22,636 nt of DNA from a virus. Taxonomy: Duplodnaviria > Heunggongvirae > Uroviricota > Caudoviricetes. The translations under genes were made by a program, and so were the position numbers. How positions within the stretch are numbered: position 1 is the stretch's first letter; each line of letters begins with the position of its first letter. Location: IMG/VR virus record IMGVR_UViG_2740892230_000001, positions 1 to 22,636 of that record. One strand, given 5' to 3'. Positions 1 to 22,265 of this stretch are shown here, piece by piece. The notes under the pieces were generated by a model, which was given only the letters and a program-made list of their open reading frames with translations, was not told the DNA's origin and searched no databases.

Positions 1-34
1 GGTTCTTCTGACGGGCGGCGGCACAGGGATGTGC
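1..34. repeat. Left copy of a perfect 34-bp inverted repeat (partner at 1164-1197); the window starts inside it, so it may extend leftward
   Basis: 1-34 ggttcttctgacgggcggcggcacagggatgtgc is the exact reverse complement of 1164-1197. Read on the plus strand it ends a frame with GGG TTC TTC TGA, the same final codons and stop as the antirepressor gene. Confidence 0.8.
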
Positions 35-1142: not shown

Positions 1143-1163
1143 TCTGTACAGAATTATTTAAAG

Positions 1164-1197
1164 GCACATCCCTGTGCCGCCGCCCGTCAGAAGAACC
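1164..1197. repeat. Right copy of the 34-bp inverted repeat; overlaps the last three codons and stop of the antirepressor gene and contains the hairpin GGCACA-GGGA-TGTGCC
   Basis: Exact reverse complement of 1-34. The hairpin is followed on the minus strand by TTTAAATAATT, a possible terminator for the antirepressor gene. Confidence 0.8.
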
Positions 1198-2131
1198 CTG
1201 CTTTGTCGTTGATGTACTCCGCGTGCGTCTGGATATCACGCAGGCATTTGCTCACACCAACGATGTAACAGAACATGGTGGTCAGCTCCGCCGCCGCGCC
1301 CGATACATCGTGCCCGTCTTCCTGTAACTGGTTCAGCAGATTCATCAGCAGTGAGTTCTCCGTCAGACCGAGAACACCAGACGGAGAATGAATCAGACTG
1401 CGGTAGCCGGGCTTCAATGGATAACCATAACATTTTGTCTGTGTTTTAATTGCCTCACGAAGCGCATCTAACATCTTGACTGCCACTTCATCATTCTCTG
1501 ATGCAGATCCAGCAGGGAGATACTCCCCTTCAAGCGGAACCCGAGCAACAAGAGACAACGCTTCGGCAAATTGATCTTCACCAATTTCTTTGTACGAACA
1601 GCCAAAATGAGATTTCAGTGACGACCACATGGTGATCATCGCCTTAGCCTGTTTTTCTTTTGGCAGAGACTGACCGCGACTCATGACGAGTTGTTTAATG
1701 GCTTCCTGCTGTTCAGTTGTTATTTTACCCGGCAACGCCTTTTTAGCTTTGCGTGGGTTAACCACATGGCCTTTAGTCCAGTACTCGTAGAGCACATCGT
1801 CACACTCTTCCTGATACTGGATTACCTTGTCGCGGATTTCAGGGCGGACTTTGTTAGGGCTGATGGTTTGCAGCCAACCTGCAAGTTTGCGTAAAGCAAG
1901 ACAGATAACCAGACGACGCTGAGTATCACCGGGGAGCTGAATGGTCATTTCGACCATGCAGCTCTTAAAGCGTTGTTGCAACTTGCGGAACTGCGTTTTC
2001 CAGTCCAGCCCCATACCTTCAACGACTGGTTTCATTGGGGTGTATGGTTCGCCGTTATGATTGACAACATAAAGCTCTGCGCCGTGGAATGGCACGTTGA
2101 TAGTAGATACCGCTGTTGCTATACTCGTCAT
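1187..2131 (-). CDS. Phage antirepressor (Ant-like), 314 aa
   Basis: N-terminus NVPFHGAELYVVNHNGEPYTPMKPVVEGMGLDWKTQFRKL fits the phage antirepressor N-terminal family as I recall it. Lies directly downstream of an Arc-like gene as in P22 immI. AGGAA SD 7 nt upstream. Confidence 0.6.
   Translation of the reverse strand: MTSIATAVSTINVPFHGAELYVVNHNGEPYTPMKPVVEGMGLDWKTQFRKLQQRFKSCMVEMTIQLPGDTQRRLVICLALRKLAGWLQTISPNKVRPEIRDKVIQYQEECDDVLYEYWTKGHVVNPRKAKKALPGKITTEQQEAIKQLVMSRGQSLPKEKQAKAMITMWSSLKSHFGCSYKEIGEDQFAEALSLVARVPLEGEYLPAGSASENDEVAVKMLDALREAIKTQTKCYGYPLKPGYRSLIHSPSGVLGLTENSLLMNLLNQLQEDGHDVSGAAAELTTMFCYIVGVSKCLRDIQTHAEYINDKAGFF
2097..2125 (+). promoter_or_regulatory. Strong sigma70-like promoter on the antisense strand inside the 5' end of the antirepressor gene (TTGATA-17-TATACT)
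   Basis: TTGATA at 2097-2102, 17-nt spacer, TATACT at 2120-2125; predicted start near 2132, at the antirepressor start codon. Confidence 0.4.
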
Positions 2132-2206
2132 GTCGTTAATTCCTATACGTAGTTTTACGATACTGAAGCCCTGACGGTCTGGCCACCGTGGGGCTTCGCT
2201 GTTTTA
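2132..2206 (+). ncRNA. Predicted sar-like antisense RNA (about 70 nt) complementary to the antirepressor ribosome-binding site
   Basis: Promoter at 2097-2125, then stem GAAGCCC (2165-2171) / GGGCTTC (2191-2197) followed by GCTGTTTTA. Spans the antirepressor SD (complement of 2140-2144) and start codon. Same arrangement as the known P22 sar RNA. Confidence 0.35.
2181..2194. promoter_or_regulatory. Operator-like motif GGCCACCGTGGGGC between the Arc-like and antirepressor genes (second copy at 2386-2400)
   Basis: CCACCGTGGGGC is repeated exactly at 2183-2194 and 2389-2400; CACCGTG / CACGGTG also at 2413-2419 and 2439-2445. Confidence 0.4.
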
Positions 2207-2371
2207 TGCCACGCTATTCTTCTCACCAGTGAGTCCATACACTTTCCTCAGCTGATAGATAATCTCTGTATTGAACTTTCGGCATTCTTTTTCGCCATTT
2301 CTTTCAATAGCTAACTTCACATCGTCCGGAAAACGAACTCGTCGTTGACACATCTCTTTTGCTTTTTGCAT
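2204..2371 (-). CDS. Arc-like ribbon-helix-helix repressor, 55 aa
   Basis: Track ORF 2204..2392 trimmed to the ATG at 2371 with an AGGAGA SD. RVRFPDDVKLAIERNGEKECRKFNTEIIYQLRKVY follows the Arc pattern (FNLRWP..EVLDLV...NGRSVNSEIYQRV) recalled from P22. Confidence 0.55.
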   Translation of the reverse strand: MQKAKEMCQRRVRFPDDVKLAIERNGEKECRKFNTEIIYQLRKVYGLTGEKNSVA

Positions 2372-2385
2372 TTCATATCTCCTTA

Positions 2386-2400
2386 GCCCCACCGTGGGGC
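2386..2400. promoter_or_regulatory. Operator-like palindrome GCCCCACCGTGGGGC at the predicted start of the arc/ant transcript
   Basis: Sits between the -10 of the minus-strand promoter (2407-2412) and the Arc-like start codon (2371). Confidence 0.4.
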
Positions 2401-2406
2401 AAAATA

Positions 2407-2435
2407 ATTGTCACACCGTGCGTCATTGATGTCAA
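2407..2435 (-). promoter_or_regulatory. Putative arc/ant promoter (TTGACA-17-GACAAT) in the divergent intergenic region
   Basis: Minus-strand perfect -35 TTGACA at 2435-2430 and GACAAT at 2412-2407. A weaker divergent promoter for the Mnt-like gene may overlap it (TTGATG 2427-2432). Confidence 0.4.
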
Positions 2436-2491
2436 GCACACGGTGAGGCATACTTCAATCATTGCAAGTAACTCAATATTTGGTGAAGAAC

Positions 2492-2923
2492 ATGAGCAGA
2501 GAAGATCCACAACTAAGGATCAGACTTCCCGTTGAAGTAAAAGAAAAAATAGAAATTTCTGCAAAAGCCAATAAGCGATCAATGAACGCTGAAATAGTAC
2601 AACGTCTTGACACCAGCTTTCTGAAAGATATTCATGAAGATGACGTAATTTCTGCTTATGAAGCAAAAATTATTGCAAACAATGCACGACATGAAATATC
2701 AAATATTATTTTCAAAAGAACCTTTAATGAAATTAATAAGAAAATAACACTTGGACATACAAGTTTTTATATAAACCTTAATGACCTTGAACTGGAATCA
2801 CTTGCAGATAATGATTACCAGATCATCTTTGAAAAAACATTTAATAAGCTCAATGAACTAGGTTACATCATCTGTGAAAACTCATGGGATGCAGATGGTT
2901 TTGGAATTGAAATACCTGAATAG
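2492..2923 (+). CDS. Mnt-like repressor, 143 aa: N-terminal Arc/Mnt ribbon-helix-helix domain plus an unassigned C-terminal domain of about 95 aa
   Basis: MSREDPQLRIRLPVEVKEKIEISAKANKRSMNAEIVQRL closely parallels recalled P22 Mnt (MARDDPHFNFRMPMEVREKLKFRAEANGRSMNSELLQIV). ATG at 2492 has a GGTGA SD; the track start at 2462 is a TTG. Divergent from arc/ant as in immI. Confidence 0.6.
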   Translation: MSREDPQLRIRLPVEVKEKIEISAKANKRSMNAEIVQRLDTSFLKDIHEDDVISAYEAKIIANNARHEISNIIFKRTFNEINKKITLGHTSFYINLNDLELESLADNDYQIIFEKTFNKLNELGYIICENSWDADGFGIEIPE

Positions 2924-3013
2924 GAAGAACAAAAGGCGTGTACATATTACACGTCTTTAATACAATTGAAAAACGCCACATTACTGATGTATGTTACAAC
3001 AAGGAGCGATATT

Positions 3014-14613: not shown

Positions 14614-15606
14614 TTACACCACACGGGCTTCTGTTTCCAGAAGCGCATCAGTCTCACGGATTGGTACACCACGGAATGAAGTCCACCACTCGCCTTCTGT
14701 CTCTTTTACGCTGATCGCCAGAGATGTTTTCTCCAGAGATTGCAGATCAAGAGCCTGGCCTACAGTGCGGTTCATGTAGAACACCGGGCGGCCCATGCCA
14801 CGGTTTGGAATGCGATGCAGTGCTTTAACCATCAACTTCGCAATATTTGCTGCAGAGGAAGGTTCTGAAAGATTGCTGACATCGATGTTTGCAATGCGAA
14901 CAACATAACGCCAGTCACGCAGAGCAAGCCCGTTGTCCCATTTGTAATGGGTACGGTAGCCTTCGTACTTGCCGCCATTCGCATCTTCCAGTGTCACCTG
15001 GCCTTTATCTTCCATCTGGATGCCAGCCTTCTGCCCTTTCGGGAAGATGCCATGCACGGTGTTTTCGCCCCACACCACTAACCAGATAGAGGTGTTATCT
15101 GTACCCGTGCCACCAGCATCAATGATGTTCTGAGCATTACCCGCAGACAGGCTGGAATAGCGGGAGGACAGTCCCATAAACTGCTGAGGGTTAACGCTGG
15201 AATCACCATAAAACAGCGTCTGCGCCATCTGCTGATTCATCGCTTCAATAAATGCGCGGTCTTCAGACAGGCGGAATTCGGCGGTATTGCCGTTCAGATC
15301 AGCCAGTGACTTATCGACTTCAGCATAGGTTTCCAGCATGCCAACGGAATCGGTCACCTGCACTGTGGTTGATTTGCTTGGCTGTACGCCATAGTTCAGC
15401 AAACGCCAGGTAGCTGAAGGTAAACCAGAACGAATGGTGGTTCGGTGTCCGGTAGGAAGGTTCCCTTCGACAAAAGGCATATCCTGAAGGATCGGGTTAG
15501 TTTGACCGAGAAGCTCGATAATCTTATCGACTTTCCCGTTTGGATCGACGCGCTTACCCCAGTCAGCCAGCGTTAGCGCAGTTAAGCCTTTAACAGCCAT
15601 TGTCAT
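14614..15606 (-). CDS. Major capsid protein, 328-330 aa
   Basis: Size and position after the scaffold gene. Strong SD GAGAGGAA; the ATG at 15600 is better spaced than the one at 15606. Followed by a stem-loop. Confidence 0.65.
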   Translation of the reverse strand: MTMAVKGLTALTLADWGKRVDPNGKVDKIIELLGQTNPILQDMPFVEGNLPTGHRTTIRSGLPSATWRLLNYGVQPSKSTTVQVTDSVGMLETYAEVDKSLADLNGNTAEFRLSEDRAFIEAMNQQMAQTLFYGDSSVNPQQFMGLSSRYSSLSAGNAQNIIDAGGTGTDNTSIWLVVWGENTVHGIFPKGQKAGIQMEDKGQVTLEDANGGKYEGYRTHYKWDNGLALRDWRYVVRIANIDVSNLSEPSSAANIAKLMVKALHRIPNRGMGRPVFYMNRTVGQALDLQSLEKTSLAISVKETEGEWWTSFRGVPIRETDALLETEARVV

Positions 15607-16609: not shown

Positions 16610-18285
16610 TGTGATTGCCCACCCTGACCACTAACTGCATTCGCCATAGCTGACAAAACACTCGGATCCGAAGTTTTAGCTTCGCTTAGCGTCTTGGCAC
16701 CCTGTGCCGCCGCCATCCCCATCGCCATCATTTGTTGCTGCTGTTGCTGCTGTGCCCGTTGCTGGCGAGCCTGATCAACCTGTTCCTGCGGAACAATGAC
16801 GGTTGGAGACACTCCGGACATATCAGCGAATGCATCGATCGCCTGATCAACGTTGAGTTTGTCGAGAGCTTCTGGTTTCGCTTGCGCAAGTTGACCAATG
16901 AAGTTAACCGTGGACGCCAGACTGGACAGGCCGATAGACTTCTGCGCCTGAGCCATGACGGAAATGTATTCGACCTTCAGGGGCATGCCTTCCATCGCGT
17001 CAGGCGGTGGCGGCAGCATGTTTTTACGCACCATCATCGAGAAAGCGCGGTCAATGAGAGGATTAAGACATTCGTCGTTCAGACGCTCCAGAACCGGCCC
17101 CAACATCAGAAGTTTTTCTTCTTTCATTTCGATCACCGCTTCAACAGGCATCGAGCGGGTATTGATGTTCTGCAACATCATGAACAGATCGACAAAGTAG
17201 GCGCTGTTAATGATTTGACGAGTGTCCTGAATGTCTGCTACCAGATCTGCTGTACTGGGGTTAACCAGATAAGCAGGCCTGAAACCATCCTGACCAGTAA
17301 TCTGATCGATATACGTGATGTCGCCAGGAAGAAGGGAGGCGCGCTGATTCTTGAGGGAAGTCGGAGCAACCATCGGCGGATTGGTGGCTTTATCAATCAA
17401 CTGCGACTTGCGCTTCTGAAGAAGCTGCAATGCCTTAACAGGTCCAAGCGCCAGCATACCCGGGCATGATGATCCATAAACATCTTCGCCGTTAACTTCC
17501 CAGCGCGGAGCCATAATTGGAAACTCATCGAATCCGGACTCACGCAACAACTTGTCGTTATCGCCGCCAACCTCGTAATAAACCGATTTGAATGGCTTGT
17601 TCTTGCTATCCAGCTTCGATGTATCGCGGTCAATGTTCGGGTAAACCGAATGCATCACCTCAATCCACTTCTCGTAGGTGCCACTTTCCCACATGCTTTT
17701 TACGGATTCGCTGACGTTATTTAGCCCGAACTCCTGAACAAGCTGACGAACAGTCATAGAGAACTTGCGAAAACAGATGTCCACACTGCCACGAGGTGAG
17801 TTAGCCAAGTAGTAACTACCTATCGGGAATGGCATTGTGCGAATGATGTCCTCGTCATCCTCCAGCACCGCCATTGCACCAGTGCTGTATGTGCCGAGGC
17901 TTCCGTATAACTGCGGAAGAGACTGGTAGAGATTCGACTTATTGAACATATCATTCATGCGGTTCTGCACCGCCTCAAGCCACAACTTAACAGGGCCATA
18001 ATCCATCATTTCAGGATCTGGCGTAGCCAGGCGAAACCACGGACGCGCGGGGCTTGTGATGCCTGACATCATGCCGCTGGCGAGAGTGCGCGCCGCCATA
18101 GTCCCGGTCGAATCAATAATGCGTGTATTGCGTCGATCGTTACGGTTGACCTCAGAAGTCAGAAAGCGGGAACCACGCGGGTTGATGTAATCACTCAACT
18201 CGCGCCAGTGCGGCTCGAACGACTGACGCTCGCTTTCAAGTTGTGCGAACTGTTTGTTCAATCGCTCTTTAGTTGTTTCCGCCAT
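16606..18285 (-). CDS. Portal (head-to-tail connector) protein, 559 aa, with a poly-Gln C-terminal tail
   Basis: Size and position after the terminase genes. C-terminus QQRAQQQQQQQMMAMGMAAAQG resembles the Gln/Met-rich tail of T7 gp8. GGAG SD. Confidence 0.7.
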   Translation of the reverse strand: MAETTKERLNKQFAQLESERQSFEPHWRELSDYINPRGSRFLTSEVNRNDRRNTRIIDSTGTMAARTLASGMMSGITSPARPWFRLATPDPEMMDYGPVKLWLEAVQNRMNDMFNKSNLYQSLPQLYGSLGTYSTGAMAVLEDDEDIIRTMPFPIGSYYLANSPRGSVDICFRKFSMTVRQLVQEFGLNNVSESVKSMWESGTYEKWIEVMHSVYPNIDRDTSKLDSKNKPFKSVYYEVGGDNDKLLRESGFDEFPIMAPRWEVNGEDVYGSSCPGMLALGPVKALQLLQKRKSQLIDKATNPPMVAPTSLKNQRASLLPGDITYIDQITGQDGFRPAYLVNPSTADLVADIQDTRQIINSAYFVDLFMMLQNINTRSMPVEAVIEMKEEKLLMLGPVLERLNDECLNPLIDRAFSMMVRKNMLPPPPDAMEGMPLKVEYISVMAQAQKSIGLSSLASTVNFIGQLAQAKPEALDKLNVDQAIDAFADMSGVSPTVIVPQEQVDQARQQRAQQQQQQQMMAMGMAAAQGAKTLSEAKTSDPSVLSAMANAVSGQGGQSQ

Positions 18286-18933: not shown

Positions 18934-19010
18934 GTGGCATTAGCTCAGTTGGACAGAGCAACCGCCTTCTAAGCGGTTGGTCGCAGGTTCGAATCCTGCA
19001 TGCCACGCCA
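18934..19010 (+). tRNA. tRNA-Arg, anticodon UCU, 77 nt with encoded CCA
   Basis: Hand-folded cloverleaf: acceptor GTGGCAT/ATGCCAC, D-stem GCTC/GAGC, anticodon stem ACCGC/GCGGT with loop CTTCTAA, T-arm GCAGG-TTCGAAT-CCTGC, discriminator G. Similar to, but clearly diverged from, E. coli argU as recalled. Confidence 0.9.
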
Positions 19011-21215: not shown

Positions 21216-21808
21216 TGATTGCCATCCTGACGTTCTTTGAGTCGCTTCCTGGCTGCTGCTATGCGATCAGCAATTGTCACATTCACATTAACATCCAAGC
21301 GTTCTTTGAATGCGTTGACGTCGACGTGCTTACCAATCAGTTCGAGGTTCTTCACCTTGTCAGGCCATTTAATTTTTTTGAGGATTGTCTCTATCGAATC
21401 CTCGTTCATGTTCATGATGGTCGATGACAGATCAAAGCCGCTAAGCGTAGTGCGCCAGATTTTCGGCCACTCGCGGATTGGCTTAAGGCTCCCATCGTCG
21501 TTGAGGATGTCGATCACGTCCATCTGGTCGATCTCCACCAGGCGCATGAGAACGTAATCAGCACTGACGCGCATTCGTTTGTTGCGCTCCTCCATCAACT
21601 CGGCAATCCGTTTTTGAATACGTTCATCGCGCATCATTACACTGGCTTTAACTGCCGCTGTATTTGGGGAGAATCCTGCGTTAATCGCTGCCTGAGTCTG
21701 GTTTTCAGGCGTTTTGATGTATGACTGGCAATAAGCCTCCTGCATTGCTGTTAGTGGCTTAAATTGCGTTGATTTGCGTTTATAGGTTTTAGGTTCAGCA
21801 GGCATCAT
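21212..21808 (-). CDS. Terminase small subunit, about 198 aa
   Basis: GFSPNTAAVKASVMMRDERIQKRI resembles the small-terminase helix-turn-helix region. Start set at the ATG at 21808 (MMPAEPK); the track's extra 26 N-terminal codons cover the tandem repeat. Confidence 0.65.
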   Translation of the reverse strand: MMPAEPKTYKRKSTQFKPLTAMQEAYCQSYIKTPENQTQAAINAGFSPNTAAVKASVMMRDERIQKRIAELMEERNKRMRVSADYVLMRLVEIDQMDVIDILNDDGSLKPIREWPKIWRTTLSGFDLSSTIMNMNEDSIETILKKIKWPDKVKNLELIGKHVDVNAFKERLDVNVNVTIADRIAAARKRLKERQDGNQ

Positions 21809-21815
21809 AACCACC

Positions 21816-21849
21816 GTGGTAATAGTTACCATTGTGGTAATAGTACCAT
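21816..21849. repeat. Tandem direct repeat (17 + 16 nt), each unit internally palindromic, immediately upstream of the terS start
   Basis: gtggtaatagttaccat (21816-21832) and gtggtaatagtaccat (21834-21849); arms GGTAA/TTACC. CCACCGTGG, the immI operator core, abuts at 21811-21819. Confidence 0.6.
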
Positions 21850-21850
21850 G

Positions 21851-21877
21851 CAAAATAAAGCCGCCATAGTTGGCGGC
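21851..21877 (-). terminator. Rho-independent terminator between the upstream small genes and the terminase genes
   Basis: Minus strand reads GCCGCCA-ACTA-TGGCGGC followed by TTTATTTTG. Confidence 0.55.
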
Positions 21878-21926
21878 AGTATTCAAAACACATCAAATTC
21901 ATCATGCATAATCTACTCGTGACATG

Positions 21927-22265
21927 TCACACTATTAATTTCGTTTCATGCCAGCCTTTAGTCACCCAGCATTGCGAGTCACCATTGCACGGGCATGAAT
22001 TAACTGGAACTCTCTCGCCGCACTTACCGCAACGTTTTCTGCTGATCGATTTTATACGCCCGCGCACGCGTGCATCATCCTGGCGGATCAGTGACGCTAT
22101 ATACTCACCAAATTCGTAAGGCGCACGCCCGGGGCGACGCGTGGCACAGTTACGCTCTAGCATTTCAATTTCCTGAGCATCAAGCACAATCTCCATCTTA
22201 CGCACACCAGATGCAGCTTGTCTGGCTCTCTGAGCGGCTTTGCGCTCTGCTGCTGATTTAGCCAT
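21927..22265 (-). CDS. Hypothetical 112-aa basic protein with a C-terminal four-Cys cluster (C-x2-C-x9-C-x-C); candidate regulator
   Basis: Track ORF; 8-nt overlap with the upstream gene; stop codon lies inside the palindrome GTGACATGTCAC (21919-21930). Confidence 0.5.

Follow-up and report, generated by a model that had tools for sequence, protein, structure and literature searches.

The stretch of DNA analysed here, referred to as the window, comprises the 22,636 nucleotides (nt) at positions 1 to 22,636 of IMG/VR record IMGVR_UViG_2740892230_000001, from a virus of the Caudoviricetes. It carries an antirepressor module that resembles the immI region of phage P22, with an arc-ant operon on the minus strand and a divergent gene for a homologue of the P22 repressor Mnt on the plus strand. 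From 1164 to 3000 the window is 99.9% identical to Escherichia phage TL-2011b, and its terS region is common to Uetakevirus (epsilon15-like) phages such as PAS61. By its sequence, the window belongs to a TL-2011b-like phage of the epsilon15 type with a P22-immI-like antirepressor module, which is found in 36 of 5,426 complete E. coli genomes. A short G+C-rich motif recurs between the divergent genes, behind the Arc-like gene and in front of terS. Here we present evidence that the copies between the divergent promoters of the arc-ant operon and the mnt-like gene probably form a three-site operator of the Mnt type, of which the other two copies are not part.

The repressor gene and the divergent arc-ant operon

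The Mnt-like gene (2492..2923, plus strand) encodes a ribbon-helix-helix repressor of 143 amino acids with the N-terminus MSREDPQLRIRLP. The protein matches the Pfam family Arc (PF03869, E 1.1e-14) and is 32% identical to P22 Mnt over 88 amino acids (BLASTP, E 3e-14), and its best match among solved structures is 1mnt. It is assigned to phrog_1388, which is filed in PHROGs as of unknown function. PGAP calls the same 143-amino-acid open reading frame in E. coli prophages as 'Arc family DNA-binding protein'. In the GenBank/RefSeq annotation of TL-2011b, gp40 ('hypothetical protein', 113 amino acids) begins at an internal methionine (window position 2583), so that the annotation omits the ribbon-helix-helix DNA-binding N-terminus.

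Divergent from this repressor gene is an operon of a small Arc-like gene followed by ant, the same gene order and orientation as in P22 immI. The Arc-like gene (2204..2371, minus strand), the first of the operon, encodes 55 amino acids that are 33% identical to P22 Arc over 40 amino acids (pairwise E 4e-5) and match phrog_228, 'Arc-like repressor' (E 3.4e-5). It has no Pfam match, a search of solved structures returned only spurious TAL-repeat matches, and its assignment is weak. The antirepressor gene ant (1187..2131, minus strand) encodes a P22_AR_N domain (Pfam, E 2.9e-45), as P22 Ant does, and is annotated 'anti-repressor Ant' in TL-2011b.

Single-sequence AF2 models of the Arc-like and Mnt-like proteins are of low confidence (pLDDT 59.9 and 58.7). 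The model of the Mnt-like protein suggests a long helix at residues 49-86 and, towards the C terminus, a small alpha/beta part. Alignment to P22 Mnt and Arc predicts the DNA-facing residues to be Q7, R9 and R11 in the Mnt-like protein and Q9, R11 (K in relatives) and R13 in the Arc-like protein. The Mnt-like strand thus reads Q-R-R, in contrast to H-N-R in P22 Mnt, and the window protein differs further from its P22 counterpart by ~57 extra C-terminal amino acids.

Three Mnt-type sites between the divergent promoters

The Pant-like promoter of the arc-ant operon (2407..2435, minus strand) reads TTGACA-17-GACAAT with an upstream TG, scores 10 of 12 matches in a consensus scan and aligns hexamer for hexamer with P22 Pant. 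In the P22 record, Pant (14793-14821), the mnt operator (14822-14844), sar and ant are all annotated. In the alignment P22 reads TTGACA-17-TATATT-CTCAAT-AGGTCCACGGTGGACCT and the window TTGACA-17-GACAAT-TATTTT-GCCCCACGGTGGGGC. The predicted start of the window transcript, ~2400, is the first base of GCCCCACGGTGGGGC, a perfect palindrome in the minus-strand reading.

This palindrome, a 7-1-7 dyad GCCCCAC(C)GTGGGGC at 2386..2400, covers +1 to +15 of the arc-ant promoter, and we propose it as the main Mnt-type operator, O3. Like the P22 Mnt operator, it begins at Pant +1 and has the 9-bp core CCACGGTGG; the register is shifted by one base and the flanks are changed symmetrically (GCCC/GGGC in the window, GGTC/GACC in P22). 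Two further sites of the same kind lie upstream. O2 (2409..2425, core CACCGTG at 2414-2420) falls within the 17-bp Pant spacer and abuts the -10 hexamer. O1 (2434..2450, core CACGGTG at 2439-2445) is just upstream of the Pant -35 hexamer. The centre-to-centre distances from O1 to O2 and from O2 to O3 are 25 and 24 bp. O1 is also located in the spacer of a putative weak promoter of the mnt-like gene (2426..2454, plus strand, TTGATG-17-CATACT), whose -35 hexamer overlaps that of Pant by 2 bp. We infer this promoter from its reading in the sequence; it falls below the threshold of the consensus scan, and the equivalent of its -10 hexamer in relatives, CATAAT, is nearly invariant.

The arrangement departs from that of P22 in several respects. 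P22 has a single Mnt operator and a distinct Arc operator with TAGA-type half-sites between the Pant hexamers, whereas the window has three Mnt-type cores. An Arc operator with TAGA half-sites was sought in the Pant spacer of the window and none was seen; a CACGGTG-type core site is there instead. The two promoters stand back-to-back with overlapping -35 hexamers, while those of P22 overlap almost fully. The phage that carries the module is epsilon15-like, not P22-like.

Repeat counts alone do not single out these sites. The 9-mer CCACCGTGG occurs exactly three times in the window (2183-2191, 2389-2397 and 21811-21819) and the 12-mer CCACCGTGGGGC twice (2183-2194 and 2389-2400). The first-pass annotation had recorded these copies along with the two 7-mers CAC[C/G]GTG, the first of them one base off its true position (2413-2419 for 2414-2420), and had argued that three copies of a 9-mer exceed chance. 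Indeed, only 0.14 copies of this single 9-mer are expected in the window. However, with the look-elsewhere effect taken into account such repeats are not unusual: 274 different 9-mers occur at least three times in the window, compared with ~152 in Markov-1 simulations, and 38% of simulated sequences hold a 12-mer pair within 250 bp. What goes beyond chance is the cluster of three CAC[C/G]GTG cores within 60 bp, which appeared in 0 of 300 simulations.

A position weight matrix (PWM) built from the sites of relatives only, then scored over the window and 100 shuffles of it, gave the same three sites as the top three of the window: 2385-2401 (23.4 bits), 2409-2425 (19.9 bits) and 2434-2450 (18.6 bits), against a maximum of 17.6 bits over all shuffles. 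The copy before terS scored 10.5 bits (the median shuffle maximum is 9.5) and the copy behind the Arc-like gene 8.0 bits.

The array is conserved in distant relatives

Searching with the Mnt-like protein retrieved 22 species-level genomes spanning Enterobacterales, Acinetobacter and Betaproteobacteria, among them members of Kluyvera, Yersinia, Pantoea, Xenorhabdus, Proteus, Morganella, Serratia, Raoultella, Acinetobacter, Giesbergeria and Pseudorhodoferax. All 22 have cores at the same three promoter positions, namely just upstream of the -35 hexamer, in the spacer next to the -10 hexamer, and after the -10 hexamer. The strict core CAC[C/G]GTG is present at all three sites in 17 of them; the other five have one or two sites with a core change of one or two bases. 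Across these sites the central base is C or G and the flanks are variable yet palindromic, and the sites are spaced 24-26 bp apart between divergent promoters. O3 is retained in all close relatives with a central base that flips between C and G, the O2 homologue TGACGCACGGTGTGACA is nearly invariant, and the O1 position is in most relatives a palindrome GCCCCACSGTGGGG abutting TTGAC. The family members from Acinetobacter and Betaproteobacteria use AACCACSGTGGTT-type sites.

The cores are concentrated between genes: in 126.7 kb of the relatives' loci, 66 of 78 strict cores fall inside 230-nt intergenic segments that make up 4.4% of the sequence. A footprint of 55 distinct intergenic sequences shows conserved sites separated by variable spacers. 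In addition, 44 further distinct IMG/VR viral loci, found with the Arc-like protein, all have the same array and a divergent MSREDPQLRIRLP gene. Arc-like loci lacking a Mnt-like gene were not found, since all 44 viral loci carry both. In five loci the first gene of the operon is not Arc-like and the three sites are still there, which indicates that the array tracks the Mnt-like protein.

These data bear directly on the explanation that all of the repeats are chance. Repeated 9-mers and 12-mers are common at this window size, and chance is an adequate account of the copies behind the Arc-like gene and before terS, but only of those. For O1-O3 it is refuted by conservation of the array across phyla-level distances, on top of the clustering of three cores in 60 bp, and as an explanation of every repeat it is next to impossible. 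The assignment of the palindrome at the arc-ant start and of the two 7-mers as repressor operators, made in the first-pass annotation, is thus borne out as far as homology to the P22 Mnt operator, in position and in sequence, and conservation in distant relatives can tell.

The copy behind the Arc-like gene is an arm of the sar terminator

The arc-ant junction encodes a sar antisense RNA, as it does in P22 (2133..2200, plus strand; Rfam RF00262, 44.8 bits against a gathering score of 43, model positions 1-68). The 68-nt RNA is homologous to the annotated P22 sar, covers the full model, forms two hairpins and is antisense to the ribosome-binding region of ant, its start at 2133 adjoining the ant ATG at 2131. 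Its own Psar-like promoter (TTGATA-17-TATACT at 2097-2125, start ~2133) is situated within the 5' end of ant, and the RNA crosses the ant ribosome-binding site and ends in a terminator hairpin at 2164-2198 followed by CUGUUUU according to RNA folding; a simple terminator scan did not call this hairpin.

The 12-mer at 2183-2194 coincides with the last two loop bases and the 3' arm of the terminator hairpin. The window has the base of the stem, GAAGCCCCA, in common with P22 and CUS-3, and its upper part, ACGGT/ACCGT, in common with a Klebsiella phage that has a different operator, GGTATAACGGTTATACC. The window differs from P22 in this upper stem and loop (ACGGU/ACCGU versus ACUG/CAGU), and it is this difference that creates the match to O3. 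The match is also polymorphic. All four variant E. coli prophages, and 6 of 17 viral contigs that are near-identical, have the arm as GCCCAACGGTGG, with the core broken (CAACGGTGG) and O3 intact. In 14 more distant relatives, whose operators are the same, the sar-type hairpins lack the core. The copy is therefore not conserved together with the repressor, and the proposal that it is a repressor site flanking the Arc-like gene is not supported: it is the 3' arm of the sar terminator, broken in close relatives and absent from distant ones. We also considered it as a fourth operator or a looping site, and rejected both on its polymorphism or absence in relatives and its PWM score of 8.0 bits. That the sar arm and O3, two G+C-rich dyads, agree exactly over this 12-mer is best explained as a coincidence that arose recently through a single base.

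The complementarity that comes with this identity allows a reading of the palindrome at 2386-2400 in which it acts mainly as RNA, either as an mRNA-stabilising 5' stem-loop or as a second pairing target of sar. The palindrome starts at the predicted +1, O3 as RNA would form a 5'-terminal hairpin of the arc-ant transcript with a predicted energy of -12.3 kcal/mol, and sar RNA positions 51-62 are complementary to +1 to +12 of the leader. However, O1 and O2 share the core and are not transcribed within the leader hairpin, the central base flips between C and G as expected of a DNA dyad, and the sar hairpins of relatives lack the complement or, in many close relatives, have a mismatch in it. A mainly RNA-based function is hence unlikely; the two roles need not be alternatives, and the palindrome could act as RNA on top of being an operator.

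The copy before terS belongs to a leader element

The gene terS is on the minus strand and has two candidate start codons, ATG 21808 and ATG 21805, the second of which is conserved in relatives. The third copy of the 9-mer (21811..21819, minus strand), which reads CCACGGTGG on the terS strand, was placed three nucleotides before the start codon in the first-pass annotation; it does lie immediately upstream, but at a distance of 2 nt from ATG 21808 and of 5 nt from the conserved ATG 21805. It is made up of the Shine-Dalgarno (SD) sequence GGTGG (21811-21815) and, joined to it, the last bases of a repeated leader element, TATTACC. The leader as a whole (21798..21877, minus strand) has on the terS strand an intrinsic terminator at 21877..21860, called by a terminator scan, followed by GCATGGTACTATTACCACAATGGTAACTATTACCACGGTGGTTATGATG; directly behind the terminator is a predicted stable hairpin at 21851..21798. 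In the predicted fold this hairpin pairs the SD and both candidate AUGs (-39.4 kcal/mol, z -6.9). It is built from the direct repeat TATTACC(AC) and a dyad TTACC-N5-GGTAA, which is kept in E. coli, Salmonella, Enterobacter and Klebsiella relatives. RNAalifold detected no compensatory changes or covariation in the leader, and the hairpin is a prediction only, with a possible function in the control of translation or of late genes.

Just upstream of the terS terminator is a gene of 112 amino acids (21930-22265, minus strand) that matches phrog_536, 'transcriptional regulator' (E 4.5e-54), and has no Pfam domain. Its product is a candidate regulator of the conserved leader dyad. The 12-bp palindrome GTGACATGTCAC at 21925-21936 is located at the end of this upstream gene and is kept there in PAS61, phiv142-3 and PAT1; it occurs once more in the window at 49-60, near its start.

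A common repressor that binds all copies of the motif, including those at sar and terS, would couple the immunity region to packaging-gene expression, as was suggested at first. The terS site does have the complete core, 7 of its 8 flanking pairs are palindromic (ATAACCAC C GTGGTAAT), family members from Acinetobacter and Betaproteobacteria use AACCACSGTGGTT-type sites, and the sar copy matches O3 at 12 of 12 bases. The distribution of the terS copy speaks otherwise. PAS61 has the exact 9-mer at the terS position and only there, and has a gene for neither the Mnt-like nor the Arc-like protein (lowest tblastn E 0.15 and 0.03). The 9-mer is intact in 70 of 80 related IMG/VR contigs with this leader, of which ~4 come from module-bearing genomes and ~76 from genomes where the module was not found. 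Moreover, one of the ~4 module-bearing genomes reads CCAGGGTGG at terS, in a sister contig whose link to that genome is tentative. More distant relatives keep the SD only (GGTGG in Salmonella and Enterobacter, GGGTG in Klebsiella), and the CCAC part varies (CCAT, CTTC, CTCA, TTCG).

The presence of the terS copy is, in short, not associated with the repressor module, and its PWM score, like that of the sar copy, is at the level of shuffled sequence; we rejected it as an operator on these grounds. With the sar copy being a terminator arm, broken in many near-identical relatives, and the terS copy an SD and leader element that is present without the repressors, coupling of immunity to packaging finds no comparative support and is very improbable. 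The three groups of motif copies are three different things: an operator array, an arm of the sar terminator, and an SD/leader element of terS.

Other features of the window

A perfect 34-bp inverted repeat, GGTTCTTCTGACGGGCGGCGGCACAGGGATGTGC, is found at 1-34 (plus strand) and 1162-1195 (minus strand). It comprises the last codons (..GFF stop) and the 3' flank of two convergent genes, a Bro-N-domain gene that ends at window position 11 and ant. The segment between the arms contains a YafO-like toxin gene (340-912; Pfam YafO_toxin, E 9e-6) and has the appearance of an insertion between two duplicated ends of genes. The repeat recurs a third time at 16700-16714, as a copy of 15 nt. The morphogenesis region harbors a tRNA-Arg gene (anticodon TCT; 18934-19010, plus strand), with the surrounding genes on the opposite strand.

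Discussion

Our comparison suggests how an antirepressor operon of the P22 type may be controlled in an epsilon15-like phage. Taking sequences, positions, homologies and conservation together, we propose that the Mnt-like ribbon-helix-helix protein (2492-2923) would bind O1, O2 and O3 between the back-to-back promoters. O2 and O3 would together cover the spacer, the edge of the -10 hexamer and the transcription start of the arc-ant promoter and, when occupied, would occlude it in the way O_mnt does in P22; RNA polymerase would be blocked and the antirepressor would stay silent in lysogens. O1 is placed within the spacer of the weak promoter that would drive the repressor gene itself, and would provide autoregulation. 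In addition, the sar RNA would pair with the ribosome-binding region of ant and exert antisense control of ant translation, as in P22. The most likely role of the P22-Mnt-type repressor that this array would serve is to keep the phage antirepressor off.

The Arc-like protein, alone or with the Mnt-like protein, might recognise the same three sites. The predicted DNA-facing residues of the two proteins match (Q7/R9/R11 and Q9/R11 or K/R13), and in the betaproteobacterial loci both proteins read Q-K-R. The Pant spacer also lacks an Arc operator of the P22 type. By functional analogy, the layout recalls OR1-OR2-OR3 of lambda, where CI and Cro compete: three related dyads at 24-25 bp spacing (24-26 bp among the relatives) lie between divergent promoters, one of which drives a repressor gene. 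Unlike the lambda system, the window proteins are of the ribbon-helix-helix rather than the helix-turn-helix type, and they would control an antirepressor operon instead of the main lytic promoter. P22 Arc and Mnt, on the other hand, have two of the three strand residues in common and nevertheless bind different operators. The five loci with a non-Arc first gene keep all three sites, the matches that mark the Arc-like protein as ribbon-helix-helix are weak, and the two proteins are not separable by occurrence in the loci found with the Arc-like protein. Recognition of the array by the Arc-like protein is a possibility, but one we consider doubtful. In its fullest form, also tentative, the phrog_1388 Mnt-like protein and the Arc-like protein would share one three-site operator and constitute a CI/Cro-style bistable switch, made entirely of ribbon-helix-helix proteins and governing antirepressor release. 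If true, such a switch would be present in prophages, epsilon15-like ones and others, whose hosts range from Enterobacterales to Acinetobacter and Betaproteobacteria.

Operation of the array by the Mnt-like protein is the account we favor, and several observations weigh against it or narrow it. The Arc-like protein, with the same predicted triad and a Mnt-like partner in every Arc-containing locus, may bind some of the three sites, or all of them. The search patterns required MSREDPQL, and the relatives retrieved all have this strand in common. In Enterobacterales, O1, the -35 hexamers and O2 form one nearly invariant block of 45 bp, which may owe part of its conservation to constraints on the promoters or to recent transfer; the conservation argument leans mainly on O3 and the distant loci. 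The mnt promoter is weak by consensus, and we infer it from sequence. Even in the variant relatives the sar copy agrees with O3 in all but one of 12 bases, and the terS site retains the full 9-bp core with partly palindromic flanks; the repressor may bind weakly at either of them. We consider it probable that a three-site array of Mnt-type operators controls the divergent promoters and that the sar and terS copies are not part of it.

Other phages carry modules of this kind with dyads of their own. In Escherichia phage PhiR5_1 (locus L011, ~1150-1250 of the locus) the divergent genes of an immI-like module are separated by a different dyad (ATGGTGNCAT-type), repeated three times, and the modules of CUS-3 and Klebsiella ST899 have own dyads as well, such as GGTATAACGGTTATACC at the start of Pant. 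Arrays with several sites may therefore be a common feature of phages other than P22.

In this study, one regulatory element was separated from two look-alikes, and an attractive link between immunity and packaging was removed. A search of a literature library for TL-2011b, the motif strings and Mnt operators found nothing on this array or module, and the array appears to be an undescribed architecture of the P22 immI circuit, with three Mnt-type operators at fixed promoter positions. It yields a directly testable model of how these E. coli prophages, some of which reside in Shiga-toxin-producing strains, may restrain expression of their antirepressor and, in consequence, prophage induction or anti-immunity.

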